DNA of 64,000 nucleotides from an uncultured Rickettsiales bacterium (GCA_964535825.1 CAZHUC010000004.1:6928-70927), one strand, 5' to 3'. Positions 40,543 to 62,065 are shown, counted from the stretch's first letter. A program made the numbers and translations. Notes: a model not told the origin generated them from the letters alone.

Positions 40543-40617
40543 GGCTCGGTAGCTCAGTGGTAGAGCAGGGGAATCATAATCCCTTGGTCGGGGGTTCAAA
40601 TCCCTCCCGAGCCACCA
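40543..40617 (+). tRNA. tRNA-Met (anticodon CAU), elongator type. A lysidine-modified tRNA-Ile2 cannot be excluded.
   Basis: 75-nt cloverleaf. Acceptor GGCTCGG/CCGAGCC, D-arm GCTC/GAGC, anticodon stem GGGGA/TCCCT with loop AUCAUAA, T-arm GGGGG-TTCAAAT-CCCTC, and an encoded CCA. The G1-C72 pair argues against an initiator. Confidence 0.9.
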
Positions 40618-40710
40618 CATACTTTCTTGCAATCTTTCCTCCTATAGTGTGAACTGTGTCGGGGCATGAATCTTGCTCCGCAGGGAATATAATAAAATAG
40701 TGGGAGTCAT

Positions 40711-41841
40711 ATGCAGGGTATTGTTCCGGTTCTCAAGCCAAAACTACCTGAAATTTCAGCTATTTTACCGTATCTTAAGCAGATCGATGAGAATCGCTGG
40801 TATGGTAATAATGGCCCGCTGGTCGTCGCTTTTGAGAAGCGAGTCGCTGATCTGCTGAAAGCAACGGCCGAAAGCGTCCTGATGGTGGCCAACGGCACGC
40901 TGGGCCTCACCGTAGCGCTACAGGCACTGGAAGTAAAACGTGGCGGCCTGTGTATCATGCCATCATGGACATTTACCGCAACACCCGCAGCGGCACTGGC
41001 CGCCGGGCTTGAGCCTTGCTTCATTGATGTGGACAAAGAAACGCAAGTCATCTCCGCAGAGAGCGTAAAAAAACATATCAAAGCGCTGAAGAAGCCAGTG
41101 AGTGCTGTGATGCCTGTATCTGCCTTTGGCGCGCCAATCGATGTTGCGCAGTGGGATAGATTCACAGAAGAAACCGGTATTCCTGTAGTGATCGACGCCG
41201 CAGCTGCGTTTGATAGCTTCATGAGCGGTGCAATGAAAATGGGTCGCACACCGGTGATGCTGAGTCTGCATGCTACGAAGATCTGCGGTATCGGCGAAGG
41301 CGGGCTGATGCTCACCAAGAGTGCTGACGTTGCATTCCGCCTGCGCCGCATCATCAATTTCGGGTTTGAGAATGACCGTCTGTCACATCGCATCGCCATT
41401 AATGCTAAGCCGAGTGAGTATAATGCGGCAGTAGCTATGGCCGTGCTGGATGAGTGGAAAGATATTCGCGCCGCCTGGGCAAAGGTGCAGTTGCGCTACA
41501 GAGAAAAGCTTGAAGCACACGGTATCGCCTGCTGGGTAAAACCTGATTGGGTAACGAGCACCAGTAACATAATTGTGCCTGAGCAAGCCGTGGCGCTGGC
41601 GCAACATCTGAAAGAGCAGGGCATTGACACACGTCGCTGGTGGGAAACAGGTTGTCATGTGCATCCGGCCTATCGCTCCTGCATGGTGCATGATGAATTA
41701 CCTAACACGCAGTGGCTCGGGCAATCGGTGCTTGGCATTCCTTCTGCCATGGACCTGAGTGAAGATACCCAGGATAGGGTATATGAGGCAGTGGTAAGCG
41801 GGCTTAAATCAATTAAGTCAGATTCCAGAAAATATGGCTAA
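40711..41841 (+). CDS. DegT/DnrJ/EryC1/StrS family sugar aminotransferase
   Basis: 376 aa with ANGTLGLTVAL and the PLP-lysine context LSLHATKICGIGEGG. Confidence 0.88.
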   Translation: MQGIVPVLKPKLPEISAILPYLKQIDENRWYGNNGPLVVAFEKRVADLLKATAESVLMVANGTLGLTVALQALEVKRGGLCIMPSWTFTATPAAALAAGLEPCFIDVDKETQVISAESVKKHIKALKKPVSAVMPVSAFGAPIDVAQWDRFTEETGIPVVIDAAAAFDSFMSGAMKMGRTPVMLSLHATKICGIGEGGLMLTKSADVAFRLRRIINFGFENDRLSHRIAINAKPSEYNAAVAMAVLDEWKDIRAAWAKVQLRYREKLEAHGIACWVKPDWVTSTSNIIVPEQAVALAQHLKEQGIDTRRWWETGCHVHPAYRSCMVHDELPNTQWLGQSVLGIPSAMDLSEDTQDRVYEAVVSGLKSIKSDSRKYG

Positions 41842-44056
41842 TCCATCTACATCTCCTGCCAATGTCGATCGTAATGATCCATGTCCATGCGGCAGTGGTA
41901 AGAAATTTAAAAAGTGCTGCATCGATAAGGTGGCTGCAGCATCCACCGCGCCATCACTGAATATCGGCCTTACCCTGCAACAAGCGGCAGCTGCACTCAA
42001 TACCGGGCGCTTGGATATTGCAGAAATTGCGCTTGCCAATGTGCTGCACGTACAACCTAATAATACGGATGCATTGAATTTTGCTGCGTATGTCTGTTTC
42101 CAACGCAAGCAATATGATACCGCGGCCGGGTATATCAACAAAGCAATAAGCCTGAATAACAAGAACGGATTATATTTCTTCACCGCCGCATTGATCTCCA
42201 AGGCATGCAAGCGGTTTGATGAAATGGAAGTGCTATTGCTCAAAGCGCTTGCGCTTAAGCCAGCGGGCTATATTTCACAGATATACGCTAATCTTGGCGA
42301 CTGCATGCATGAAAAACGTAACATGCCTGCGGCAATCAGTTATTACACAAAGGCGATCGAGGCGGATGCAAAGAACGCTAAAGCCTATTTCTATCGTGGT
42401 ATGGCGCGTTATGAATTTGAGGGAGCAAACTCAACCTATGAAATTGATGCCAATAAAGGCATCGAGCTTTCACAAAAGTCATCGGATATGCTGTGCAAAT
42501 TAGCAACGATCTATAACAGTGAGCAGGATTTCGAGAAAGCACATCTGCTGTTGCAAGATGCGGTATCCGTTAGTCCGGATAATGAAGAGGCGTCATTCTT
42601 CCATGCGCTGACCTTTTATGAGCGTGGGGATGTTGAAACTGCAAAAAATATCTTTGCAAAAGTATTGACCAGACACCCGCTGAGTATTCGCACACAGGTG
42701 AGTGATGCTTTCCTGCTGCCGGTCATCGTTCATGATAATAATGAGATAGAATCATGGCGTACGCGTTTGATGTCGCGGGTGCAACAGCTGATCGATAATA
42801 AGGTCATTTTGCATGAACCTGAGCGTCAGGGACTGTATCTGCCCTTTTATCAAGGGTATCATGGGCGTGATAATAAGGTGATGATGCAGAAATTGTCGGA
42901 ATTCTTCCTGATATGCTGTCCATCGGTGCAATACACCGCACCACATTGCACCAAACCGCGAGATAAAAGTAAAAAGATACGTATTGGGTTCGTTTCTGAA
43001 TATTTCCATTCAAAACTGCTTACACAATTCTTTGGTCCGCTCATAGAGGGATTGGCAGCGGATGCTGAATGCGAAGTGGTGATATTTGCTTCCTCAGCGC
43101 GTGAGAATGACAAGGTAAAAACCTTATCAGATCAGGTTAAGAAATATGTGGTGCTGCCACTTAGCCTGCCATCCATGCAGCAGACTATTGCGCATGAGGA
43201 GATAGATATCTTGATCTATCTGGATATTGGTATGCGCCTGAATACCTATTTATTGGCACTGGCGCGGCTTGCACCGGTACAGGCGGTGATGGGTGGACAC
43301 CCACTCACCACCGGTATCCCGAACATGGATTATTTCTTCACTACAGGTAGCATGGAGGCGGAAGGCTCGCACACGCATTACACAGAAAAGCTGCTGGCTG
43401 GTGCAGATTTGCTTGCAGTGATCAAGAAGGAATATGTTGCACCGGTTGATATGACGCGCGCAGAGCTTGGGTTACCAACAGAGGATGTGCGCTTATATAC
43501 CTGTCCAGTGCTGCTATTCAAACTGCATCCGGATATGGATATGGTGTTCGAGGGTATACTCAATAAAGATCCCAAGGCGCGCATTATCTTGTTCGATAAT
43601 GGCAAGATCATCTGGCGTGAGTTGCTGGAGAAGCGTTTTGTGGATTCTATGGGCAAAGAACTTGCATCGCGCATCATATTTGTTCCATTTGCGGCAAAAG
43701 ATAAGTTCATGCATACGATGCGCGCCATGGATGCGATATTTGATACATTGCATTTCTCCTTCGGTACAACGGCATTCCTGTTGCTTGGCTCAGAAGTGCC
43801 ATTCGTGACCAAACCCGGGGAATTTTTGCGTGGCCGTGGTGCTTACGGGGTATTCAAAATGATGGGTATGCTCCATATGTCAGCAGATACCATAGATGGG
43901 TATGTTGATCTTATTGTTAAACTGGCAAATGACAAGGCGTTCTATAAGCAGGCGCAGGATGATATCCGCAAACAAAACCATCTCATCTTTGATGATTATG
44001 GGCCTGTCGATGAATTCCGTACGCATCTGAAACGTATCGCCTCCGAGATCGCATGA
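41834..44056 (+). CDS. SEC-C motif + TPR repeats + GT41 (SPINDLY/OGT-like) glycosyltransferase
   Basis: 740 aa. N-terminal NDPCPCGSGKKFKKCC (SecA-type zinc motif), about 300 aa of TPR-like repeats, and a C-terminal half with RIGFVSEYFHSKLL and LFKLHPDMDMVFEGILNKDPKARIILF, typical of bacterial GT41. Overlaps the degT-like gene by 8 nt. Confidence 0.75.
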   Translation: MANPSTSPANVDRNDPCPCGSGKKFKKCCIDKVAAASTAPSLNIGLTLQQAAAALNTGRLDIAEIALANVLHVQPNNTDALNFAAYVCFQRKQYDTAAGYINKAISLNNKNGLYFFTAALISKACKRFDEMEVLLLKALALKPAGYISQIYANLGDCMHEKRNMPAAISYYTKAIEADAKNAKAYFYRGMARYEFEGANSTYEIDANKGIELSQKSSDMLCKLATIYNSEQDFEKAHLLLQDAVSVSPDNEEASFFHALTFYERGDVETAKNIFAKVLTRHPLSIRTQVSDAFLLPVIVHDNNEIESWRTRLMSRVQQLIDNKVILHEPERQGLYLPFYQGYHGRDNKVMMQKLSEFFLICCPSVQYTAPHCTKPRDKSKKIRIGFVSEYFHSKLLTQFFGPLIEGLAADAECEVVIFASSARENDKVKTLSDQVKKYVVLPLSLPSMQQTIAHEEIDILIYLDIGMRLNTYLLALARLAPVQAVMGGHPLTTGIPNMDYFFTTGSMEAEGSHTHYTEKLLAGADLLAVIKKEYVAPVDMTRAELGLPTEDVRLYTCPVLLFKLHPDMDMVFEGILNKDPKARIILFDNGKIIWRELLEKRFVDSMGKELASRIIFVPFAAKDKFMHTMRAMDAIFDTLHFSFGTTAFLLLGSEVPFVTKPGEFLRGRGAYGVFKMMGMLHMSADTIDGYVDLIVKLANDKAFYKQAQDDIRKQNHLIFDDYGPVDEFRTHLKRIASEIA

Positions 44057-44946
44057 CGAGCCACCCGTACGCCACTGAGACGTTTGCGAATTCGCTTTCG
44101 CATTGGGGGCAGGCATGGCGAGTGGATGCCTGGAATTGTTATGTTATTAAGCGGCCAATTGCTGACGAGGCATTTGATGCTGCTGGTGTATATCCGATCA
44201 CACCTTTAGAGCCAAACATAGATATTACCGCAGGACTTTCCCAGCTGCGGGATGCTGGCTTTGTTTCGATTGTGTTAGTGTTTGATGATTTTCACAGGCC
44301 AGATCTTGTGGAATTAAAAAAGCATTTTGATGCCGTGAATGATTTTAAACCACATTATGTATATCGCCCCGATAAGGGTAAGCTCGATTATGACAGTCAC
44401 CACCGTCGTGCTGTAAAGACTGCATATAAACATGTGCGGACCGATATTATTGCGCTCAGTGACGGCCTTGATGAATGGGCACGGCTTTATGATGCACTAA
44501 CAGCAACGCTCAAATTAGAAGGTCTGCATGCGTTCCCGCATGAACATCATCAAGCCATTGCCAGTATGGAGGGTGTGATCGCTGTTGGCGCATGGCTAGA
44601 TAAAGAACTGGTTTCCTGCCATGTATGGGTGGATGATGGACAATATATGCACAGTCATCTCGTGGCCTCTAATGAGAAGGGTTATGAGTTCAGGGCTGCA
44701 TACGCAGTGAATGATACCTCCATACAGTATTTTGCTAATAGAAAACTGCTGAATTTCGGCGGCGGGGCAGGGAATATAGTGGGCAGTGACGATGGCCTTG
44801 CGCGCTTTAAGAAAGGTTTCTCAAATGATGTTGCAGGTTCGTATATCTGCGGTGTCATTCTGGACAAGGATAAATACCAGCAGTTGGTGGATGCAAGAGC
44901 TCTGTCTCAGCCAACAAACTTCTTCCCTGCTTATAGAGCACCGTAA
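44053..44946 (+). CDS. FemAB-like / GNAT (Acetyltransf_6-type) acyl- or aminoacyl-transferase
   Basis: 297 aa. C-terminal NFGGGAGNIVGSDDGLARFKKGFSN resembles FemAB-family/BioF2-like GNAT proteins. ATGA overlap with the GT41 gene. Confidence 0.55.
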   Translation: MTSHPYATETFANSLSHWGQAWRVDAWNCYVIKRPIADEAFDAAGVYPITPLEPNIDITAGLSQLRDAGFVSIVLVFDDFHRPDLVELKKHFDAVNDFKPHYVYRPDKGKLDYDSHHRRAVKTAYKHVRTDIIALSDGLDEWARLYDALTATLKLEGLHAFPHEHHQAIASMEGVIAVGAWLDKELVSCHVWVDDGQYMHSHLVASNEKGYEFRAAYAVNDTSIQYFANRKLLNFGGGAGNIVGSDDGLARFKKGFSNDVAGSYICGVILDKDKYQQLVDARALSQPTNFFPAYRAP

Positions 44947-44951
44947 GTCTG

Positions 44952-45875
44952 TTATTTCCAGACTGCGTAGCCAAAGCCCTTTGCGCCAAAATCATTCCCA
45001 TTATAGAACATATATCTCCCACCGGGGGTATCTATGATATTGGGATATGCCACCATTTGTGAATCCCATCCTTCCGAGCTCACTGGAATGCCAGCCTTAC
45101 TGTCATCGCGACGCCATTTCTTGCCATCGGTTGATGATGCATAGCCGATACGGTAACTGCCAGTGCCGCCACGGAAATCGTGGCTGCCGCGATAGCTGAA
45201 CCACATATAATATGTTCCATCTTCGAAGAATACGCTGGGGCGTGTGGTGGCTTCACCTTCTGCAGCACCCGGTATACAGCAGATATTCGGGCGTTGCCAA
45301 TCCAGCCCATTATCGGAGTGGGCATAATAGATATAATAAAGTGGCTCATATTTTTCGCCGGTCTTTACCCAATCGACACCCGATCCATACCACATTTCCC
45401 ATTTATCGCCACGCTTCACAATAGAAGGCGACATGGAGGAAAAAGGTTCACCGCGGGTGATAGAAAGCACAGGCCCTGCATAGGGACGCTCAAATGTTTT
45501 GCCGCCATCCTGACTAATGGCAAGGCCTACCGCGTTCAGATATGGCACGGTCTGGCCGCGCTGCCAGCCGGTTGTGTATAACCATACTTCGTTGCCCACA
45601 TGCAGCACGGCTGCCGGCATGATACCGAACTCATCAAATGTACCGGGTTTGCCCAGATCGAGTATCGGATTCTTATGCACATACAGGACTTTTCTGGGGT
45701 CATGAATATCGACATCCACAAATGTGACAAGGCTGGTCTGTTGTTCAGGCCGTACTGTGATATATACACGGATACGATCCTCCATCAGCAAGGCAGTCGG
45801 CACTTGCGCATATGCTTTCATCCACGGGGATTCCAGTGAAGGCCCGTAAATAAACCCGCGTTTTTCCCATGCCAT
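44952..45875 (-). CDS. Hypothetical protein, predicted beta-propeller (GH32/43/130-like fold)
   Basis: 307 aa with repeated W/Y/G-rich strand motifs (WLYTTGW, WEMWYGSG, YYMWFSY, YMFYNGND). The fold assignment is tentative. Confidence 0.45.
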   Translation of the reverse strand: MAWEKRGFIYGPSLESPWMKAYAQVPTALLMEDRIRVYITVRPEQQTSLVTFVDVDIHDPRKVLYVHKNPILDLGKPGTFDEFGIMPAAVLHVGNEVWLYTTGWQRGQTVPYLNAVGLAISQDGGKTFERPYAGPVLSITRGEPFSSMSPSIVKRGDKWEMWYGSGVDWVKTGEKYEPLYYIYYAHSDNGLDWQRPNICCIPGAAEGEATTRPSVFFEDGTYYMWFSYRGSHDFRGGTGSYRIGYASSTDGKKWRRDDSKAGIPVSSEGWDSQMVAYPNIIDTPGGRYMFYNGNDFGAKGFGYAVWK

Positions 45876-45927
45876 ATTTTTTCCTTAAACTGTCGACTTT
45901 GTGTGCAGATTATTTTATAAACCTAAT

Positions 45928-46728
45928 ATGGGAGCTGTAAAGAACACTTCTCAGGGAGACCTAAATCTCCTACTCCCCGAATATGATCTGCCAACCTATG
46001 GAGGCGAGCGGTGCGAATATTTTGTGTGTTCCACGCCGCGTACCGGTAGCTCATTACTGGGGGACTTATTTTTTCGTACTGGGGTGTTAGGCGTACCGTA
46101 CGAGTACCTGAATCCTGTGCATATAAACACCCTGGTAGACCGTTTTGGCCTGAAGAGAAACTCGGCTGGTGCTGTTGATGCAGATGTTTATTTAGAGCGC
46201 TTGAAATCATGCCGTACCGGCAAGAACGGTGTATTGGGTATCAAAAGCCATTTCAATCATGCAGCGCCATTCTTTCGTAGCAGGAAATTCTTGTCGTGGT
46301 TTCTCACTTTGAAACATATCTATATTACGCGTCAGGATCTGCTGGGGCAGGCCATATCATATTCACGCGCTTTGCAAAGTGATGCATGGTCGATCAATTC
46401 TCAGATCAAAAAAGAACCTGTTTATGATTTTAACAATATCATGCAGTGCCTTGATGGCATCATCAGTGAGAACAGTAACTGGCATAAGAATTTTGCAGCC
46501 TTTGGCCTGAAGCCTTTATACATCACCTATGAAGAGCTTGTTCGTGATCCTGTGGAGGCCAGTCAGCGTATCTCCAAGTTCCTGAAGCCTGATGGTAGCC
46601 TTAACTTTACACTGGATCTGGATAATTCCAGCCTGCGCAAACAAAGCGGCGGCCAGAGTAAAGAGTGGAGAGAGCGTTTTGTATCTGACGTCTACAAAAT
46701 GAAGGGCTTATCGGGAGACAGTAAGTAA
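45928..46728 (+). CDS. Stf0-type sulfotransferase
   Basis: YFVCSTPRTGSSLLGDLFFRTGVLGVPYEYLNP matches the PAPS-binding loop region of the Stf0 family. The start is ATG 45928 or GTG 45901. Confidence 0.7.
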   Translation: MGAVKNTSQGDLNLLLPEYDLPTYGGERCEYFVCSTPRTGSSLLGDLFFRTGVLGVPYEYLNPVHINTLVDRFGLKRNSAGAVDADVYLERLKSCRTGKNGVLGIKSHFNHAAPFFRSRKFLSWFLTLKHIYITRQDLLGQAISYSRALQSDAWSINSQIKKEPVYDFNNIMQCLDGIISENSNWHKNFAAFGLKPLYITYEELVRDPVEASQRISKFLKPDGSLNFTLDLDNSSLRKQSGGQSKEWRERFVSDVYKMKGLSGDSK

Positions 46729-47370
46729 TCACTTCTGGTATAGATAGATACCGGTGTGGTAGTTGTTGTGCCAGCCAGTTGTTTCCCCAACCTTCTTAAA
46801 ACCAGCTAATTCTACGTCGGATTCATACACAGGATTATTGTATACCAGATAGCAGGCTTTGCTCGCATTTGTTATGTGTGTGAGCATTTGTGTCAGTGTT
46901 TCAACTCCGAACGGGTCACAGATGTAGATGATAGAATGCTCTGCATAATTATTGAAAACGCGCGCGTTCTCCTTGATAATTTCTGCGCCGATACCAAGTT
47001 TTTGCAGGTTCTTGCTTGCAATGGCTGCAAGATTTTCATCCAGTTCAATGCCGACGATACCCTGGCAGGGTAAATACTTTGCAGCCATTATGAGAACTTT
47101 TCCCTTGCCGCAGCCAACATCATAAAATGTAAATTTATCCGTCTGCGCGATCGATCTCAGTAAGTTGAAGCATTTGATGATCTCTTGCGTAAATGAAGCC
47201 TGGTAATGCTTCATATCCGAATCGGTTTCAGTATATTCAGAGAGCGGACGCCATGTTTCAGTATCAACGCCGTTGAGTATATCGAACAGCGTTGTTTCCC
47301 GGAAATGTGTCCATACACGTTTGAAGCCATGTGCTTTGTAAAGATTTTTATAGCTACTCCAGCTAGTCAT
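46729..47370 (-). CDS. Class I SAM-dependent methyltransferase
   Basis: 213 aa with motif I FYDVGCGKGKVL and an acidic post-I residue (GIELDE). Last gene of the carrier-SDR-MTase operon (1-nt overlap). Confidence 0.7.
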   Translation of the reverse strand: MTSWSSYKNLYKAHGFKRVWTHFRETTLFDILNGVDTETWRPLSEYTETDSDMKHYQASFTQEIIKCFNLLRSIAQTDKFTFYDVGCGKGKVLIMAAKYLPCQGIVGIELDENLAAIASKNLQKLGIGAEIIKENARVFNNYAEHSIIYICDPFGVETLTQMLTHITNASKACYLVYNNPVYESDVELAGFKKVGETTGWHNNYHTGIYLYQK

Positions 47371-48122
47371 CAGACCCTCAATCCGCCATGCACTTCCAGC
47401 ACAGTACCATTTACATAATGATTATTAATGGCGAACATGCAGGCATCAATGATGCTGTCGGGATTGCCTAGCATCTTCATCGGGATGCGGCTGGTGATAT
47501 CTTTAAGCTGTGCTTCAGATACTGCGGCATGGGTGGAGGGGGTATCCATATAGCCTGGGGCAATAGCCACACTGCGGATACCAAAACCACCAAGTTCTTT
47601 TGCCCATACTTGTGTGAGGGCCTCGATGCCTGCCTTGCTGGCAGAATAAGCACTCTGGCCGGCATTGCCTTTAGCCGCTACCGAGCTGATATTGATGATC
47701 ACGCCCTGTTTGCGTGCTTTAGCCATTCTGCGTGCCACGAACTGCGATACATAGAAAGCAGAGGAAAGATTGGTGTTGATACAACGCATCCAGTCATCTG
47801 CGTTGCGCTCCAGAGATGAGTCATCCTTTTCCAGAATATTCACCAGTGGTGCGCTATGTAATATGCCGGCATTGTTGATAAGCACATCAACGGTCGGATG
47901 GTCGGCATATACTGATTCAAGGCAGCTATTCACTTTGCGGGCATCCGTAAGATCGCAGGTGACGCCGTGAAAGTTCTTTTGCGCCATGGCTTTTAGTTTG
48001 TCCGTATTCACATCAAGGCCAATGACCGATGCTGCGCCTTCTTCAAGCATGGCTTGTACCAGCCTTTTGCCTAATTCACCGGCTGCACCTGTAATGAGTA
48101 TGGTCTTTCCTTGGACGGTCAT
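47370..48122 (-). CDS. Short-chain dehydrogenase/reductase (FabG-like)
   Basis: 250 aa with ILITGAAGELG, NNAG and YSASKAG. ATGA overlap with the carrier-protein gene. Confidence 0.85.
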   Translation of the reverse strand: MTVQGKTILITGAAGELGKRLVQAMLEEGAASVIGLDVNTDKLKAMAQKNFHGVTCDLTDARKVNSCLESVYADHPTVDVLINNAGILHSAPLVNILEKDDSSLERNADDWMRCINTNLSSAFYVSQFVARRMAKARKQGVIINISSVAAKGNAGQSAYSASKAGIEALTQVWAKELGGFGIRSVAIAPGYMDTPSTHAAVSEAQLKDITSRIPMKMLGNPDSIIDACMFAINNHYVNGTVLEVHGGLRV

Positions 48123-48343
48123 AGGCGATGCCTGTGTAAAATGGTTTCAATAGCTTTGACCGACACCATATCAGCGATCTCGTCGCCTGTCAGTTCGATA
48201 CCAAGCTCTTTCTCGATAGCCACGATGATCTCGATATGTTTAAGCGAGTCCCATTCCGGCGTGTTTTCCATAGAGGTGCTGGCGCTTACTGAGGCTTCAG
48301 GCAGCTTTAAGATGTCGGCGATCAATTTATGTATTGTATTCAT
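48119..48343 (-). CDS. Acyl/peptidyl carrier protein
   Basis: 74 aa. EWDSLKHIEIIVAIEKELGIEL carries the DSL phosphopantetheine-attachment serine. Confidence 0.8.
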   Translation of the reverse strand: MNTIHKLIADILKLPEASVSASTSMENTPEWDSLKHIEIIVAIEKELGIELTGDEIADMVSVKAIETILHRHRL

Positions 48344-48372
48344 ACGCTATTTATTCCAAATTTCAGGGCACT

Positions 48373-49893
48373 ATGGCAACAGCTATCTTTAATATGGGGC
48401 TGCGCTTTAAAGAAATAGCGCAGTTGCATCCTGATAATACCGCACTCCGTATGGAAAGCGGCGAAGCTGTTACCTATCGTGAATTAGATGTTCATAGCGA
48501 CCATGTGGCGGCGTTGCTGGTGTCAAAAAAACTTGGAAGCGCGCGCCCATTGGCCATCTTTGCCGATAAATCGGTATGGGCATATGCTTCCATGCTCGGT
48601 GCGCTGAAGGCCGGTGTGCCATATGTGGTGCTTGATATGGAAAGTCCTGCCGAGCGGCTGGATAAGATACTGGATAGGTGCAAGCCCGGGCTGATCATCA
48701 GTGCAGCCGATGATTTTACATGGAAAGATGCGGAGATATACAATTTCAGCCAGCTTGATGGCCTAAAGGATGCACTGCCTGTTGAACATATCGCACAGGT
48801 TGCACCTGCTACACCGGCTTACCTGATGTTCACCTCCGGCTCTACCGGTTTTCCCAAGGGCGTTACCATCTCGCATGCCAGCATGCTCAATTTCTGCCAT
48901 TGGGCACGAGATACATTCTCCATTACCCCGCAGGACAGATTGTCGGGCGTGAATCCGCTTTATTTTGATAATTCTGTATTTGATTTTACGGCATCACTCT
49001 TCAACGGCGCGTGCCTGATGCCCATTGGCCGCAGCACACTGAAGCAGGCCAAGAAGCTGGTCGAGCAGCTTAGCGATTGCACCCTATGGTTCTCTGTGCC
49101 TTCCATGCTTATTTACCTGATGACGATGAAAGCACTCACCAAAGAAAGCTGGCCTGCCATGCGCGCCATTGTTTTCGGCGGGGAAGGCTATGCCAAGACC
49201 GAGCTCATGAAGCTCCACAAGATGTTTGGTAAGCAGGCAACGCTCTGGAATGTGTATGGGCCAACTGAATGTACCTGCATCTGTTCTGCTTATGCCGTGT
49301 CTGAAAAAGATTTTGCAGATATGGACATGCTCGCCCCGCTTGGCTTCCTTGCCAAGGAGTTCGATGGGTTGGTACTAAATGAAGGAGGAAAGCCGGTCAA
49401 GGATGGTGAGATAGGCGAGTTGCTGCTGTGTGGCTCGCAGGTGGCGATCGGGTATTATAATGATGAGGAGCGTACCAAGGCATCATTCCTGGTGAATCCT
49501 GTCACTCCTGCTTCTGGCCAGATGTGTTACCGCACGGGGGATCTCGTGCTGCGTGACCCACAAACCGGTTACCTGCATTTCAAAGGTCGCAAGGATAACC
49601 AGATCAAGCATATGGGTTATCGCATTGAGCTGGAGGAGATCGAGGCGGCATTGGCCGGGTTTTCCGAGTTGTCGCAAGGAGCAGTGGTGTATCACAGGAA
49701 GAGCGCTACGGCCGGGCGTATCATGGCGTTCGTGACGCTGGCGCATGACGTGGCAGCACAAGACATAAAAAACCGTTTGCGCAGTAAGCTGCCGTCTTAC
49801 ATGATACCGGATGAAGTGATCATTATGGATGCATTGCCTAAGAACGCGAATGGTAAAGTAGACCGTAAGGCGTTGCTGGCAGGATTGGAATAA
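48373..49893 (+). CDS. Stand-alone NRPS-type (DltA-like) amino-acid adenylation enzyme
   Basis: Core motifs are LMFTSGSTGFPKGV (A3), FDNSVFD (A4, with the Asp that binds an alpha-amino group), NVYGPTECT (A5), YRTGDL (A7), GRKDNQIKHMGYRIELEEIE (A8), LPSYMIP (A9) and NGKVDRKAL (A10). The start is ATG 48373 or 48334. Confidence 0.85.
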   Translation: MATAIFNMGLRFKEIAQLHPDNTALRMESGEAVTYRELDVHSDHVAALLVSKKLGSARPLAIFADKSVWAYASMLGALKAGVPYVVLDMESPAERLDKILDRCKPGLIISAADDFTWKDAEIYNFSQLDGLKDALPVEHIAQVAPATPAYLMFTSGSTGFPKGVTISHASMLNFCHWARDTFSITPQDRLSGVNPLYFDNSVFDFTASLFNGACLMPIGRSTLKQAKKLVEQLSDCTLWFSVPSMLIYLMTMKALTKESWPAMRAIVFGGEGYAKTELMKLHKMFGKQATLWNVYGPTECTCICSAYAVSEKDFADMDMLAPLGFLAKEFDGLVLNEGGKPVKDGEIGELLLCGSQVAIGYYNDEERTKASFLVNPVTPASGQMCYRTGDLVLRDPQTGYLHFKGRKDNQIKHMGYRIELEEIEAALAGFSELSQGAVVYHRKSATAGRIMAFVTLAHDVAAQDIKNRLRSKLPSYMIPDEVIIMDALPKNANGKVDRKALLAGLE

Positions 49894-49894
49894 T

Positions 49895-50569
49895 ATGAAG
49901 AAACTGGTGATATTCGGCATTGGCAAGATCGGGCAGGTGGTGATGCACCATTTTGCTACCGACAGCGATTATACCATCGCAGGGTTTGCGGTGGATAAGC
50001 AATACATACCACAAGGCGGTATGTTCGAGGGGCTTCCGGTCGTTGCATTCGATGAAGTAGAAAAACATTTTCCTCCACAGGCGCATGATATGTTCGTGGC
50101 GGTGGGATATCAGCAGTTGAATGGCCTGCGCGCAGCACGTTGCGCCGCAGCTCGCAAAAAAGGCTACATACTTCCTAATTACATCAGCTCTGCGAACCGG
50201 CATATCAAAAGCCCGATGGGGGATAATAATTTCATTATGTCCGGTGAGCCTCTGCAGCCGCGCACCAAGATAGGCAGCGGTTGTTTTATCTGGACGAATG
50301 CCATCATCGGCCATCATTCACATGTGGGCGATTATTGCTGGATCACCTCTAATGTCACCATCGGTGGTAATTGTCGCATTGGTGATAATTGCTTCTTAGG
50401 GCTGGGTGCTACCATCGGTCATGAAATAAGCATTGGTGCGTGCTGTCTTATCGGCGCGGGTGCGCTCATCACAAAAGATGCCCCGGAGGGTGGTGTGTAT
50501 ATCGAAGCTGAGACACAACGCTTCCGCCTGAACAGTGAACAGTTCCTCAAAATGAATACGCTTAAATAG
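49895..50569 (+). CDS. NeuD/PglD-type left-handed beta-helix sugar N-acyltransferase
   Basis: 224 aa. N-terminal KLVIFGIGKIGQVV Rossmann-like domain followed by hexapeptide repeats (IGSGCFIW..IIGHHSHVGDYCWI..VTIGGNCRIGDNCFLG). Confidence 0.8.
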   Translation: MKKLVIFGIGKIGQVVMHHFATDSDYTIAGFAVDKQYIPQGGMFEGLPVVAFDEVEKHFPPQAHDMFVAVGYQQLNGLRAARCAAARKKGYILPNYISSANRHIKSPMGDNNFIMSGEPLQPRTKIGSGCFIWTNAIIGHHSHVGDYCWITSNVTIGGNCRIGDNCFLGLGATIGHEISIGACCLIGAGALITKDAPEGGVYIEAETQRFRLNSEQFLKMNTLK

Positions 50570-50576
50570 GTGATCC

Positions 50577-51584
50577 ATGAAAAAAGAATTAGCTGATATC
50601 TATCGCTGCCCGGCCACCGGTGAAAAAGTAAAACTTGAGGTCGGCAAGGAGCAGGGCGGGGAGGTGCTGGAAGGCACATTCACCGCTGGCAGCAATCGTT
50701 ATCCCATAAAGTCTGGTGTGCCTGATTTTACCTATCCGTTCATGCTGGAGCAGAGCGATGCCGAAGCACGCCGTTACTACGACGAAAAGGCCGATGAGTA
50801 CGATGAATATCTGCCGCTTACGTTCGAAACGTTCAAGGTAGATGAAACGGCAGTGCGCAACAGCATGATCGATGACCTGTGCCTGAGGCCAGATTCAAAG
50901 GTGCTGGAAATTGGTGCTGGCAGCGGTCGTGATTCAGAGCTGATACTCAAGCGGCTGGGTAAAGACGGCCAGCTTTTCATGCAGGATATATCATCGGGTA
51001 TCTTTGATAAGGCGGTGCAAAAACTAAAAGCTGCAACGCCTGCTCCGGCATTCTTCATTTCCAATGGCAGTTACCTGCCGTTCCCCGATAAGTATTTTGA
51101 TGCCACCTATCATTTTGGTGGGCTCAACACCTTCGCGGATATTGCGCGTGCTTTCAAGGAAGCGGTACGTGTCACCAAGGTGGGTGGCAAGATCGTGATG
51201 GGTGATGAAAGCATGCCTCTCTGGCTGCGTGAGACCGAGTTCGGCAAGGTGCTCATGAACTCCAACCCTCATTACAAATTTCAGCTGCCGCTTGAGCATA
51301 TGCCGGTGGAAGCACGCAATACGCGCTTGCGCTGGATCATCGGGGAAGTGTTCTATGTGATCGATTTTGAAGTGGGTGAGGGCACACCATATGCCGATCT
51401 GGATTTTGAGATACCAGGCCCACGCGGCGGTACACACCGCACCCGCTATTATGGCCACATGGAAGGTGTTACACCGGAAGTGAAGCGACTTGCTACCAAG
51501 GCCGCAAAGTCATCAGGCAAAAGCCTGCATGAGTGGCTGTGTGATGCCGTGAATACGGCGGCCAAAAGAGATCTTGGGCAATAA
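50577..51584 (+). CDS. Trm112-like N-terminal domain + class I SAM methyltransferase + C-terminal ribbon-helix-helix-like tail
   Basis: 335 aa. YRCPATGEKVKLE...YPIKSGVPDF (Trm112-like), VLEIGAGSGRD (motif I), and the C-terminal PEVKRLATKAAKSSGKSLHEWLCDAVNTAAKR, which resembles CopG/Arc-type RHH. Confidence 0.7.
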   Translation: MKKELADIYRCPATGEKVKLEVGKEQGGEVLEGTFTAGSNRYPIKSGVPDFTYPFMLEQSDAEARRYYDEKADEYDEYLPLTFETFKVDETAVRNSMIDDLCLRPDSKVLEIGAGSGRDSELILKRLGKDGQLFMQDISSGIFDKAVQKLKAATPAPAFFISNGSYLPFPDKYFDATYHFGGLNTFADIARAFKEAVRVTKVGGKIVMGDESMPLWLRETEFGKVLMNSNPHYKFQLPLEHMPVEARNTRLRWIIGEVFYVIDFEVGEGTPYADLDFEIPGPRGGTHRTRYYGHMEGVTPEVKRLATKAAKSSGKSLHEWLCDAVNTAAKRDLGQ

Positions 51585-54310: not shown

Positions 54311-56703
54311 TGCCTTAGCACACCACCAAAGCCCTTGGCGGCGGCAGCGATGATGGCATTGGAAATGGTGTTGATGTCGGCTTCGGCGAGCGTCTTATCC
54401 ATTGCCTGCAGGGTTACCTGCACGGCCACGGATTTCTTGCCAGCCTCCACACCTTTGCCCTGATACACGTCGAATATCTCAACATTCGTGATGAGTTGCT
54501 TTTCAGCTTTGTTGATGTTCGCGATGATATCAGATGCCGTAACTCCAGCATCCACGATGAACGCAAAATCACGCGTCACCGCCTGATAATCGGATAGTTT
54601 GAGCGATGCTTTCGCTTTGCCTTTCGCACGCGCGGCAGGAATGGCATCAAGGAATAATTCAAAACCAGTTACGGTTTTACCTTCCATGTCGAGTGCTTTC
54701 AGCACCGCTGGGTGCAGCTCACCAAAATATCCGAGGATGATCTTGCCGCCTAGCGTCAGCGCGCCGGAACGGCCGGGGTGATACCATGCGGGGGTATTTG
54801 TGGTAATATCAAATTTCTGTACACCCAGTGCAGAAAGCACGGCCATGGCATCCGATTTTGCATCGAATGCATCCAGTGGCAGGGTGGATTTTTGGAACTG
54901 TTCACCGTGAACATAATAAGTATGTGTGCCGGTACGAATGCCAGCTGCGATCATTTTCTGGCCAGCAGGCGTTACATCATGGAACTGCAGGCCCACTTCT
55001 GCAAACGCAACATCATGGAATCCACGGGCAGCATTGTTACGCGCGGCATCCAGTAGGTTCGGAAGCAGCGATGGGCGCATGGTATCCAGATCAGCCGAGA
55101 TAGGGTTGGCAAGTTTCAGGCTAGCATTTGTGCTGCCAAATAACGTGGCGTTCTTTTCTGAAAGGAATGACCAGGTGCAGCATTCCATGAACCCCCGTGC
55201 TGCAAGCAGTCGCTTTGCCAGATGCGTGCGTTTCTGCATCAGGTTCAGTGCGGGCTTAGCGATGCCTGTCAGTTTTGGCAGAGGAGTTGCAGGGATGTTA
55301 TCATAGCCATGGATGCGAAGGATTTCTTCCACCACATCGGCTTCGCCTTCCACATCGGCACGCCATGAGGGTGGGCTTACTTCAAATCCATCAGCAGAAG
55401 CACTTACAGCAAAGCCAAGCGATTTCAGGATGGTTTCAATTTTTGCAGGCGCAACGTCCACACCGCCGAGCGATGCAACACGGCTGGCATTCACTTTGAT
55501 GCTACGCTGCCAGGAAGGTGTTTTGCCAGTGATGACAAGATTGCTCATCTCACCGCCGCAGAGTTCTTTGATAAGGCGCAGGGCAAGCAGCGCGCCGGTT
55601 TCCACAAAATTGACATCCACGCCGCGTTCGAAACGGTAGCGCGCATCGGTGTTCAGTTGCAGTGCGCGGCCAGTGTTCGCAATGCTGATGGGGTTGAAGA
55701 GTGCAACTTCTAAAAACACATCCGTAGTTTCGGCTGTGCAGCCGGTTTCCATGCCGCCAATAACACCGCCGAGGCCAAGGGCTGCGCGGTCATCCGCGAT
55801 CACCAGCATGGTCGGGGTGAGGGCATATTCCTTGTTATCGAGTGCTGCGAGTTTTTCACCAACTTTAGCAGCACGCACATGGATATTGCCGGAGAGTTTC
55901 TTTGCATCATAAACGTGCAGCGGGCGACCGAGATCGAAGGTGATGTAATTGGTGATATCCACCAGCGCAGAGATCGATTTCTGGCCGATGGCAGCAAGGC
56001 GATTCTTGAGCCATGCCGGGCTTTCGCCGTTTTTTACACTCTTGATATAACAGCCAATGAATTGCTGGCAGTTATCATCAGCAATGGTGACAGACACAGG
56101 AGACACAAAACTTCCTTTGATACCGGAAACATCTGGAAGTGGTTTCAATTTGCCAAGGCCTGCCACCGCAAGGTCACGCGCGATGCCGTGCACACCCAGC
56201 GCATCGGCGCGATTCGGGGTGATGGCGATTTCAATGATGGGATCATTCAGCCCCATGACCTCAGCGACGGATGCGCCGATCGGTGCTTCGGGCAACTCGA
56301 TGATACCTTCGGAATCGCCACCAATGCCAAGCTCGTCGGCTGAGCAGAGCATGCCGTTCGATTCCACACCGCGTATCTTCGTTTTCTTGATAACGAACTG
56401 GTCACGCGGAATAAGCGCACCTTCCTTGGCAAGCGCTACGAAAATGCCCGCGCGCGCATTCGGCGCGCCGCAAACAATTTGCAACTCACCCACATCAGAC
56501 TGCACTTTGCACACGCGGAGCTTGTCAGCTTCCGGATGTTTTTCAGCATGCAGTACTTTAGCTACAGTAAATGGCGCAAGCTCCGCGCTGCGGTCGGTGA
56601 TGGATTCGACCTCAAGGCCAATGGCGGTGAGTGTTTTACTGATTTCCTCCAGCGAGGCATTGGTATCGAGATGGTCCTTGAGCCAGCTTAGTGTAAATTT
56701 CAT
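54307..56703 (-). CDS. pheT: Phenylalanine--tRNA ligase beta subunit
   Basis: 798 aa with [14 protein letters not shown], and tRNA-binding, B3/4, B5 and FDX-ACB domains in order. ATGA overlap with pheS. Confidence 0.95.
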
Positions 56704-57758
56704 AATCCCCCCACCAGCGAAGGAATATGCAGCGGGTCAAAGCCGTAATGCTTAAGCCAGCGCACGTCACTGTCAAAGAAAGTGCGCAGGTCAGGGATGC
56801 CGTATTTCAGCATGGCGAGGCGTTCAACGCCCATGCCGAAAGCAAAGCCCTGCCATTCATTCGCGTCGATGCCGCAATTTGTGAGCACGTTCGGGTGCAC
56901 CATGCCGCAGCCCATGACTTCCAGCCAGTCTGCGCCTGCGCCGATCTTGATCTCATCACGCGAGCGAGTGCAGCCAATATCAACTTCCGCGGAAGGCTCG
57001 GTGAACGGGAAGAAGCTGGGGCGGAAACGCACCGGCACGTCATCCAGCTCAAAGAAGGCTTTCAGGAACTCGATGATGCAGCCTTTCAGGTGGCCCATAT
57101 GGATATTTTTATCGATAACGAACCCTTCCACCTGATGGAACATCGGTGTGTGAGTGATATCGGAGTCGCAGCGGTAAGTGCTGCCTGGTGCAATGAAGCG
57201 GAATGGCGGCTTGCCGTTCTTCATGGTGCGTATCTGCACGGGTGAAGTGTGGGTGCGCAGCAGCATCTTCTCGCCCTGCAGATAGAAGGTGTCATGCATC
57301 TGGCGGGCAGGGTGCGAGGCAGGGATATTCAGCGCATCGAAATTATGTTCATCATCTTCAATATCCGGGCCATCTGCCACGGAAAAACCAAGGTCAGAGA
57401 AGATGGCGGTGATCTCTTCCATCACCTGCGTGACCGGATGAATACGGCCGGCAGGGATAGGTTGTGGGGGAAGGGTTACGTCAATCTTTTCATTCGCAAG
57501 GCGGGCAGAAAGTTCTGCATCTGCGAGGGAAGCTTTTTTAGCCTCTATCGCCTCGGATACTTCCTGTTTTATCTTGTTGAGCTCTGCGCCCAGTGTCTTG
57601 CGGGTTTCGGGATCGGCCTGTCCCAGTGTTTTCAGTGCTTCGGTAAGTGCTCCCTTCTTGCCGAGCAGTGCAACGCGCTGTTCTTCAAGCGCAGCAGATG
57701 ACGTGCAGCTTTCAACCGCTTGAAGCGAAGTGGCACGCAGGGAATTGGTATCGGTCAT
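56700..57758 (-). CDS. pheS: Phenylalanine--tRNA ligase alpha subunit
   Basis: 352 aa with class II motifs ([37 protein letters not shown]). Confidence 0.95.
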
Positions 57759-61038: not shown

Positions 61039-61166
61039 CGTTGCGCCAGACAGGCTACACCGACGGCCTGATTGCCATAGGCACGGCTGTGCTCATCGGT
61101 ATCAATATCACCCTGTGGCTTGTAACCACATGGATGTTTAAAAAGGGCTACCGGCTTAAGACTTAG
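61039..61166 (+). pseudogene. Relic 3' end of a second ABC-2 permease gene (diverged copy of 60480-60608)
   Basis: Translates as GYTDGLIAIGTAVLIGINITLWLVTTWMFKKGYRLKT*, against GYTDGTIATGMAVLVGINITLWLVTVWMFKKGYRLKS* in the intact gene. A 31-nt block is identical (60573-60603 = 61131-61161). An upstream indel breaks the frame, and there is no upstream ORF. Confidence 0.8.
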
Positions 61167-61969
61167 CCCCTGCCAACCGCAGGTGAATCTTTCGGGGTGT
61201 ATTTTGCAATAGTATAAGATTCGCGCTGTCTTGGTGTCATGGCGTCTTTTTCTTCACGAGTTGGTTCACGCATGCCGGGGATATGTGCGCCGTAGCTGAT
61301 CAATAAATCATAGATCTGTTTTTTGGTTTGCTCATCAAGATGCTGACTTTTTTTCACATCCTCGGCTACGCCACCCTTACTATAGTAAGCATCATTTGCA
61401 TCCGCTCCTGCTTTTAAAAGCATGGTTACTAACGGTATGTCACCACTGCTTGCTGCCGATCCCAACAGCCAGCCATTCCCAGCTCTGTTTGGATCTGCGC
61501 CAGCGTTCAGCAGATCCTTGATCACAGCAAGATAGTCCGTTTTGTACGGAATTTTAGGCGTGTTATATACTGTATATATATGCGCTGCCTTTCTCAAAGC
61601 TGTATCAGTACCACTGATATAAACAGTATTAGGGTCTGCTCCTTTTTCGAGCAGTTTTGCTATCACTTGCCCCATATCGTGGTCTTTGCCTGATTCGATG
61701 GCTTGATGCAGCAGTGGTCTGTCATGGGACGGCTTGTAGTTAGGGTTTATTTGATCTGCGTCTAGCAGTTGGATAAACTTTTCTATTTCACCGCGCACCA
61801 GAAGAGCATCTGGATTGGGATAGCAACCGATCCAACTCCCTTCTTGCACTTTTTTTGGAGTAATAAGGGGGGTAAACTGATCAACCGTTACGGTATCACC
61901 TGCCGCCCTGGCTTTTTCAACAATTGCCCTAAGTTCATCCGAACTCAAATCTTTGTGCTGTGCCGACAT
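61163..61969 (-). CDS. Ankyrin-repeat protein
   Basis: The start is taken at the ATG at 61969. Repeats carry LLEKGADPN, LLNAGADPN and LLKAGADAN plus PLLHQAIESG. Confidence 0.8.
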   Translation of the reverse strand: MSAQHKDLSSDELRAIVEKARAAGDTVTVDQFTPLITPKKVQEGSWIGCYPNPDALLVRGEIEKFIQLLDADQINPNYKPSHDRPLLHQAIESGKDHDMGQVIAKLLEKGADPNTVYISGTDTALRKAAHIYTVYNTPKIPYKTDYLAVIKDLLNAGADPNRAGNGWLLGSAASSGDIPLVTMLLKAGADANDAYYSKGGVAEDVKKSQHLDEQTKKQIYDLLISYGAHIPGMREPTREEKDAMTPRQRESYTIAKYTPKDSPAVGRG

Positions 61970-62065
61970 TCTGCTATCCTTTTTGCGTATTTCGATAATT
62001 GGCAATAGTATTATCTTTTTTTAAAGAGTTAGGAAGTTAAATAGCGTTAAGAATGTGTGACAGCC

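Follow-up and report, generated by a model that had tools for sequence, protein, structure and literature searches.

Many O-antigens, capsules and flagellin glycans contain amino sugars that are N-acylated by amino acids or by small modified acids, and the genes responsible are mostly unassigned. The closest described system is the viosamine island of Pseudomonas syringae, which encodes VioA, VioB, an acyl carrier protein (ACP), the FabG-type VioR, the beta-ketoacyl-ACP synthase III (KAS III) VioS and the methyltransferase VioM, and which provides N-(3-hydroxybutanoyl)-2-O-methyl-viosamine for flagellin (PMC3927599). The glycosylation island of P. aeruginosa PAK is related to it. Flagellin islands of Aeromonas and Enterobacteriaceae contain sets of ACP, FabG and AMP-synthetase genes with LuxE/LuxC, and the flagellin glycosyltransferase FlmG consists of N-terminal tetratricopeptide repeats (TPR) and a C-terminal GT-B domain (PMC7591256). 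The 64,000-nucleotide stretch of DNA analysed here, from an uncultured Rickettsiales bacterium (the window; GCA_964535825.1 CAZHUC010000004.1:6928-70927, with positions counted from its first letter), encodes a stand-alone amino acid adenylation enzyme, a small carrier protein, a FabG-like short-chain dehydrogenase/reductase (SDR) and a left-handed beta-helix acyltransferase of the NeuD/PglB/VioB family. A search of the full-text literature, with subscription journals outside its coverage, found no description of this cassette, and the only related sets that it returned were the viosamine island, the Aeromonas and Enterobacteriaceae islands, and FlmG.

An earlier reading of the window, made from the sequence alone, had proposed that these genes load an aminoacyl or keto/hydroxy-acyl group onto a carrier and pass it to a sugar. 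The identities of the genes, their motifs and the conservation of their synteny are confirmed here. On balance, we lean towards the interpretation that they represent a widespread, portable module that loads an amino acid onto the carrier protein, modifies it by means of the SDR, and transfers it by means of the NeuD-type enzyme to an amino sugar of a surface glycan.

Distribution and synteny of the module

A pattern scan, with each species represented by one genome, detected the adenylation family in at least 593 species-level genomes. Relatives 42-50% identical to the enzyme of the window are found across at least 14 bacterial phyla, in groups that include Alpha-, Beta- and Gammaproteobacteria, Desulfobacterota, Campylobacterota, Myxococcota, Bacteroidota, Planctomycetota, Verrucomicrobiota, Acidobacteriota, Melainabacteria, Chloroflexota, Actinomycetota, Eremiobacterota and Lachnospiraceae. 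Eighty related loci (numbered with the prefix L) were fetched, their open reading frames (ORFs) were called and clustered, and hidden Markov models were built from the clusters. Partners were counted within 6 kb of the adenylation gene at the 53 loci that have at least 6 kb of sequence on both sides. A homolog of the SDR was found at 52/53 loci, the NeuD-type transferase at 51/53, the carrier protein at 50/53, and a GH130-like propeller protein also at 50/53; less constant partners are a 335-residue methyltransferase (40/53), a DegT aminotransferase (36/53), WbqC (34/53), RmlB (15/53), a TPR glycosyltransferase (8/53) and a FemX-like protein (6/53). WbqC and the FemX-like protein share a slot that is filled at 40/53 loci. 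The sequence-only reading had named the carrier protein, the SDR and the NeuD-type enzyme as partners, rightly, but had missed both the propeller protein and the FemX-like/WbqC slot.

The usual gene order, in one direction, is DegT - WbqC - ACP - SDR - adenylation enzyme - NeuD-type - (GNAT or formyltransferase) - methyltransferase - GH130-like, with frequent stop/start overlaps between module genes. Direct adjacency on the same strand was observed for ACP and SDR genes at 65/80 loci, for SDR and adenylation genes at 39/80, and for adenylation and NeuD-type genes at 38/80. In the window, the adenylation and carrier genes lie on opposite strands with their start codons 29 nt apart (48344-48372), as had been reported, but the divergent pairing did not hold up as a general trait: it is confined to the window and to L001-L003, the three loci most closely related to it. 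Judged from this distribution, the pairing is apparently a local, lineage-specific rearrangement, and the functional link between the genes is evidently real and old. The carrier gene overlaps the SDR gene by 4 nt (stop over start), and the SDR gene overlaps the gene of a 213-residue methyltransferase by 1 nt, in agreement with the coupling that had been described; this methyltransferase, however, falls outside the conserved core, which includes the 335-residue one instead. For two other metagenomic contigs, public gene calls made independently predict the same set of products as in the window (506, 74, 250, 213, 224 and 335 residues).

The constant partners of the module are sugar enzymes. 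A small secondary-metabolite cluster of the nonribosomal peptide synthetase (NRPS) type, situated beside glycan genes by chance, is extremely improbable as an explanation: a stand-alone adenylation domain with a carrier and tailoring enzymes does resemble the precursor-supply cassettes of natural products, but the annotated families of the 80 loci include no condensation, thioesterase, ketosynthase or reductase-release enzyme.

The surroundings of the module differ among lineages. In Bacteroidota and Acidobacteria it lies beside genes of Wzm/Wzt-type ATP-binding cassette (ABC) transporters and GT2 glycosyltransferases. It is found with a GtrB/ArnC-like GT2 enzyme in Legionella, Desulfovibrionaceae and some Gammaproteobacteria (L052, L053, L059, L065, L067, L070, L072-L074 and L077), accompanied at six of these loci by a GtrA-like membrane protein, which suggests that the acylated sugar may be transferred to a polyprenyl phosphate carrier and added in the periplasm. 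Homologs of a TPR-GT41 protein accompany it in Accumulibacter, Thiobacillus and the lineage of the window; this neighbour suggests protein glycosylation, possibly of flagellin. No DNA-level match was found in complete genomes of E. coli by blastn, which is blind to homologs of about 45% protein identity, and no known O-antigen structure was linked to the module; a plasmid collection yielded only generic NRPS matches.

The adenylation enzyme

The 506-residue adenylation enzyme (48373..49893, + strand) matches the Pfam families AMP-binding (E 6.7e-67) and AMP-binding_C, and passes the cutoff of TIGR01733, "amino acid adenylation domain" (336.5 bits, cutoff 317.4), whereas models of fatty-acyl and aryl CoA ligases score far lower. 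Its core motifs are A3 FTSGSTGFPKG (153-163), A4 FDNSVFD (198-204), A5 NVYGPTE (293-299), A7 YRTGD (386-390), A8 GRKDNQIKHMGYRIE (405-419) and A10 PKNANGKVDR (489-498). All of them, including the Asp of A4, had been noticed from the sequence alone, and all are invariant in an alignment of 20 homologs. The 506-residue enzyme contains no condensation (C), thiolation (T) or thioesterase (TE) domain; the first and last of these had already been said to be missing. An alternative in-frame TTG at 48334 would give a protein of 519 residues and would overlap the start of the carrier gene; the ATG at 48373 is preferred, on the basis of homolog alignments and of the public gene calls.

Solved relatives of the enzyme include NRPS adenylation domains, DltA, prolyl-carrier ligases, beta-aminoacyl-ACP synthetases and AlmE (PDB 4oxi; 150 bits). 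Asp199 and Lys495 (235 and 517 in PheA) are invariant both in the alignment of 20 homologs and in all 81 aligned sequences (the 80 related loci and the window). Profiles, relatives and residues together support placement of the enzyme among the amino acid activators, as had been proposed, and not among the fatty-acyl-AMP ligases. The best single-domain solved relative is chain C of PDB 8xjz, a "Peptide synthetase" of 1634 residues (292 bits, versus about 215 for DltA); this protein may be informative on the adenylation family, and a search for its identity gave no answer.

The relationship to DltA and AlmE raises the alternative of a Dlt- or Alm-like system, in which the amino acid would be esterified onto a finished envelope polymer or lipid and not onto a nucleotide sugar. 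The score with a DltA model is indeed high (336.5 bits with NF003417, 318.7 with TIGR01734), but both equivalog cutoffs (476 and 559.85, respectively) are missed; DltB (of the MBOAT family), DltD and an LpxL-type AlmG are not among the 11 proteins of the island; and across phyla the module is situated among the cytoplasmic nucleotide-sugar enzymes DegT, RmlA, RmlB and NeuD-type. We consider this alternative very improbable.

A specificity code could be extracted, as had been suggested, by numbering the pocket according to a PheA segment that is consistent with published residue numbers. The code of the window is D-N-F-F-V-G-V-(C,I)-K, and across the 81 sequences it is nearly invariant, D-N-F-F-[IVSTA]-G-V-(CI or IC)-K: position 299 (I, V, S, T or A) is the sole appreciably variable site, few sequences differ at other positions, and the alignments by MAFFT and HMMER disagree at positions 330/331 (C,I versus I,C). 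The pocket is hydrophobic, with an unusual Asn at position 236, and is presumably nearest to the codes for Ile and Val. Because the code is nearly invariant and the Asp is invariant, one conserved substrate bearing an amino group is expected; threonine or another beta-hydroxy amino acid is our preferred guess, made with low confidence.

The carrier protein and the SDR

The 74-residue acyl/peptidyl carrier protein (48119..48343, - strand) matches the PP-binding profile (PF00550; E 6.5e-8, 33.1 bits, cutoff 20.8), and its phosphopantetheine site is Ser33 in EWDSLKH. Asp32 and Ser33 are conserved in 47/47 readable aligned sequences, one further row being ambiguous at a residue, which bears out the claim that the carrier possesses a modifiable serine in a DSL motif.

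The 250-residue classical SDR (47370..48122, - strand) was assigned from profiles, solved relatives and a residue alignment. Its nearest solved relatives are FabG and type II 3-hydroxyacyl-CoA dehydrogenase; Tyr159 and Lys163 are invariant, Ser147 is present in 63/64 sequences, and an acidic residue (Asp or Glu) closes strand beta-2 in 63/64 (the other having a gap). The acidic residue at this position indicates use of NAD(H) rather than NADPH. Since these relatives modify thioester-bound acyl groups at their beta position, and since the gene of the SDR adjoins that of the carrier protein, the evidence points to interconversion of beta-hydroxy and beta-keto groups on the carrier-bound acyl chain. 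That the SDR oxidises a tethered threonine-like residue is a guess; if a beta-hydroxy amino acid were oxidised on the carrier in this way, an unusual 2-amino-3-oxoacyl group could result. Apparent fusions of ACP with SDR and of SDR with adenylation enzyme were rejected, their long ORFs being over-extended starts in other reading frames.

The resemblance of the SDR to FabG would also suit a different substrate. If the adenylation enzyme were to load a short keto or hydroxy acid (e.g. acetoacetate or 3-hydroxybutyrate) and the SDR were VioR-like, the module would make an amino sugar with an N-(3-hydroxybutanoyl) group, of the kind present on Pseudomonas flagellin as modified viosamine. The sugars known from flagellin include N-3-hydroxybutanoyl-Qui4N, and the P. 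syringae island has the same cast of enzymes with KAS III replacing the adenylation enzyme. We regard this as quite improbable. The amine-binding Asp of FDNS is invariant and the amino acid adenylation model is passed, whereas adenylation domains for keto and hydroxy acids replace that Asp; the SDR is of the NAD type, unlike the NADPH-dependent FabG; and enzymes that would cap an amine recur in the module. No ketosynthase was found among the 11 proteins of the window's island, nor among the annotated families of the 80 loci, a scan outside which lie many smaller families and singletons.

The NeuD-type transferase and the FemX-like/WbqC slot

The gene of the 224-residue NeuD-type protein (49895..50569, + strand) starts 1 nt past the stop of the adenylation gene (49893), the same gap as had been given before. 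The protein passes the cutoff of TIGR03570 (166.9 bits, cutoff 160.8) and has four Hexapep stretches, with a weak match to PglD_N that stays under the cutoff (19.5 bits, cutoff 23.4). Its best solved relatives are PerB, PglD, PglB and VioB (E 1e-13 to 1e-10, about 50 bits), and the residue aligned with their catalytic His (His125 of PglD, His141 of PerB) lies within AIIGHHSH, of which His140 is present in 59/62 sequences and His141 in 54/62.

The protein that shares a slot with WbqC is represented in the window by a 297-residue FemX/FemAB-like protein of the GNAT fold (44053..44946, + strand), whose profile matches the alanyl-tRNA-dependent FemX (E 3e-6). At the Acidobacteria loci the FemX-like gene adjoins the carrier gene upstream, and WbqC (PF08889, a family with no solved structure) holds the same position elsewhere; FemX-like proteins occur at L038, L045, L055, L056, L058 and L066, and most other loci have WbqC. 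A distant relationship between WbqC and FemAB was ruled out by profile-profile comparison, so that the two are not homologous although they occupy the same position. WbqC has been reported from operons that also encode a prolyl-tRNA synthetase and a tRNA-Pro variant of their own (PMC10404621). This association points to a tRNA donor, and WbqC may be an aminoacyl-tRNA-dependent transferase. WbqC and the FemX-like proteins are probably alternative tRNA-dependent aminoacyl transferases that add a further residue, and the FemX-like protein of the window is possibly such an aminoacyl transferase.

The NeuD-type enzyme is the likeliest user of the carrier thioester as judged from synteny, because it is present at 51/53 loci compared with 40/53 for the WbqC or FemX-like proteins, which are probably tRNA-dependent. 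The conserved link of adenylation enzyme, carrier protein, SDR and NeuD-type enzyme is the best available evidence that the transferase may take the carrier-bound group. It is rather unlikely, in our estimation, that the NeuD-type protein is instead an ordinary acetyl-CoA-dependent N-acetyltransferase, acting on a sugar amine or on the alpha-amine of an amino acid, while the aminoacyl group is delivered by the FemX-like protein, WbqC or the GH130-like protein. Such an arrangement would fit the characterised PerB, PglD and VioB, which as far as we know all use acetyl-CoA and which are among the best solved relatives; it would fit, too, the location of a WbqC or FemX-like gene directly upstream of the carrier gene at most loci, and the fact that enzymes of the FemX family are aminoacyl transferases. 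However, ten loci have the ACP, SDR and NeuD-type genes with neither WbqC nor a FemX-like gene, FemX-type enzymes use aminoacyl-tRNA and are not known to use carrier thioesters, the operons of WbqC likewise point to tRNA, and at many loci a capping role is already filled by separate GNAT or formyltransferases.

The acceptor sugar and the tailoring enzymes

The 376-residue DegT/DnrJ/EryC1 sugar aminotransferase of the window (40711..41841, + strand; PF01041, E 1.4e-61) has as its best NCBIfam match, below cutoff, the DesI-type dTDP-4-keto-6-deoxyglucose aminotransferase. This resemblance, together with the frequent RmlA and RmlB neighbours at other loci, indicates that the acceptor may be a dTDP-4-amino-4,6-dideoxyhexose. 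At one slot of the module, a GNAT alternates with a formyltransferase (PF00551, at L020, L024, L073, L075 and others; c9 or c15 GNATs at other loci), and the window has neither. A capping enzyme in this slot fits a product that has a second free amine, as would derive from an aminoacyl group.

The GH130-like protein (307 residues; 44952..45875, - strand), a core member of the module, was assigned by profile comparison to the five-bladed beta-propeller superfamily of GH130, GH117, GH32 and GH43, its profile matching, best among solved structures, beta-1,2-mannan phosphorylases (E 4.5e-19), and is presumably sugar-handling. The 740-residue glycosyltransferase (41834..44056, + strand), which was recognised by its Pfam domains, has TPR at about residues 48-290 and Glyco_transf_41 at 540-714, the same architecture as FlmG; it starts with a SEC-C metal-binding motif (residues 13-29; PF02810, E 4.9e-10) that is not part of the description of FlmG (PMC7591256).

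The 335-residue methyltransferase, which depends on S-adenosylmethionine (SAM) and is a frequent member of the module (50577..51584, + strand), is UbiE/COQ5-like, with matches to Methyltransf_25/11 and Ubie_methyltran. The class I SAM methyltransferase of 213 residues (46729..47370, - strand; weak methyltransferase Pfam matches) is a lineage-specific accessory whose only homolog is in the closest relative, L001. The proteins of L001 are 83-89% identical to those of the window, but L001 lacks the 275-residue Stf0-type sulfotransferase, an accessory tailoring enzyme (45901..46728, + strand; PF09037, E 2.6e-27); it encodes a Methyltransf_24 protein instead, at another place in the island. Sulfotransferases of a different family occur at four loci that are more distantly related. 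Tailoring genes thus appear to be swapped between close relatives.

Proposed pathway

The wiring of the carrier pair to the NeuD-type enzyme, as first proposed for the window, stands as a link of synteny across phyla; we infer every chemical step of the mechanism, including the substrate, the donor and the acceptor. The adenylation enzyme would activate one particular amino acid and transfer it, as a thioester, to its dedicated carrier protein. On the tethered acyl chain, the FabG-like SDR of the NAD type would interconvert the beta-hydroxy and beta-keto groups. The NeuD/VioB-type beta-helix transferase would then place the acyl group on the amine installed by the DegT aminotransferase, the acceptor probably being of the viosamine type. 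The product would be decorated, in the window, by the two methyltransferases, the sulfotransferase and the FemX-like protein and, at other loci, by WbqC, GNAT or formyl transferases, O-methyltransferases and a dioxygenase. Finally, in the organism of the window, the FlmG-like TPR glycosyltransferase would probably attach the sugar to a protein such as flagellin, whereas in Bacteroidota and Acidobacteria the module would feed polysaccharides exported by ABC transporters, and at Legionella-type loci a GtrA/GtrB-like lipid-carrier route.

Several observations weigh against this pathway. To our knowledge, the characterised relatives PglD, PerB, VioB and NeuD all use acyl-CoA donors. The specificity code equals none that we know of; if the amino acid were a plain aliphatic one, as the Ile/Val-like pocket would suggest, the SDR would have no obvious substrate, and the preference for NAD leaves the direction of its reaction unfixed. 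The pathway gives no role to the GH130-like protein, whose association with the module is as close as that of the NeuD-type gene. The window's island contains neither RmlA nor RmlB, which makes the nucleotide sugar uncertain here, and the window contains no flagellar genes. No phosphopantetheinyl transferase was detected in the 64-kb window by tblastn with AcpS and Sfp probes, a weak test.

It is more tentatively that we suggest the five-gene core (adenylation enzyme, carrier protein, NAD-type SDR, NeuD-type enzyme and GH130-like protein) to be the first instance of a PglD/NeuD-class enzyme using a carrier-bound, aminoacyl-derived thioester. If the pathway is correct, the module would constitute a general genetic basis for the amino-acid-acylated amino sugars of O-antigens and flagellin glycans, and would give a function to a gene set that is annotated generically in hundreds of genomes, including those of Legionella, Accumulibacter, Bacteroidota and Acidobacteria. 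For the well-studied PglD/NeuD class, carrier-protein thioesters would join CoA thioesters as donors, and glycoengineering would gain a portable cassette for the placement of non-acetyl groups on sugars. Several cultured species carry the module, which is therefore directly testable; they include Undibacterium pigrum DSM 19792, Niastella caeni, Prosthecobacter fluviatilis, Massilia agrisoli, Legionella quinlivanii and Paramagnetospirillum marisnigri.

The genomic island of the window

The module genes of the window belong to an 11-kb glycan island bounded on the left by a tRNA-Met gene (40543..40617, + strand), which lies 93 bp upstream of the DegT gene, and on the other side by purB, pheT and pheS, identified by eye from their translations. 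In the middle of the island the G+C content is 0.46-0.48, slightly below the average of the window (about 0.50), and the island may have been horizontally acquired. Scans for promoters and terminators in the 29-bp divergent gap and on the downstream side of the island gave nothing above chance.

Two antisense ORFs of 230 and 232 residues (40707-41399, - strand, and 56057-56755, + strand), situated opposite DegT and pheT, have low-complexity translations rich in Ser, Ala and Arg and are almost certainly not genes. An ORF of 280 residues (61163-62005, - strand) has apparent ankyrin-type repeats in its translation, judged by eye, and the metagenome bins most closely related to the window are Rickettsiales-like or alphaproteobacterial; both observations would be compatible with life in association with a host.

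Comparison with known systems

The viosamine island of P. syringae has, by analogy and with no implication of orthology, a DegT-type aminotransferase, a VioB/NeuD transferase, a carrier protein of its own, a FabG-like SDR and a methyltransferase, as does the module described here. The two differ in the origin of the acyl group, since KAS III (VioS) builds the acyl chain in P. syringae and an amino acid adenylation enzyme takes its place here, and in that the module has an SDR of the NAD type and adds the GH130-like protein and the WbqC/FemX-like slot. In view of that island, and of the precedents set by LpxA/LpxD and AlmEFG, the novelty that the sequence-only reading had attributed to the route was somewhat overstated. 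C. jejuni Cj1298 was considered as a further precedent and rejected, being LegH, a user of acetyl-CoA.

PglD, PerB, PglB and VioB belong to the same fold family as the NeuD-type protein and have the same catalytic His, but they are users of acetyl-CoA, whereas the protein described here, which matches them at only about 50 bits, is tied to a carrier and adenylation pair. LpxA and LpxD are left-handed beta-helix acyltransferases with acyl-ACP donors and UDP-sugar acceptors, LpxD being an N-acyltransferase. Their sequence similarity to the NeuD-type protein is weak and they belong to another subfamily; they transfer long fatty acyl chains from the housekeeping AcpP with no adenylation enzyme involved.

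Comparable sets of carrier protein, SDR and AMP-forming ligase occur within glycan loci in the flagellin islands of Aeromonas and Enterobacteriaceae and in rfbKLMNO of Vibrio cholerae O1, but their partners are reductases of the LuxC/LuxE type. DltA and DltC, which function in the D-alanylation of teichoic acids, likewise pair a stand-alone adenylation domain of about 500 residues with a small dedicated carrier; the module differs from them in missing the DltA cutoffs, in its specificity code, in having no DltB or DltD, and in the proposed cytoplasmic transfer to the amine of a nucleotide sugar by a beta-helix transferase. AlmE, AlmF and AlmG of V. cholerae constitute a Gram-negative aminoacyl-carrier system for the glycine modification of lipid A. 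They decorate a surface glycoconjugate from an aminoacyl-carrier donor, as the module would, but their transferase is an ester-forming lipid A acyltransferase of the LpxL type, whereas that of the module is NeuD-type and is encoded beside sugar-nucleotide genes.

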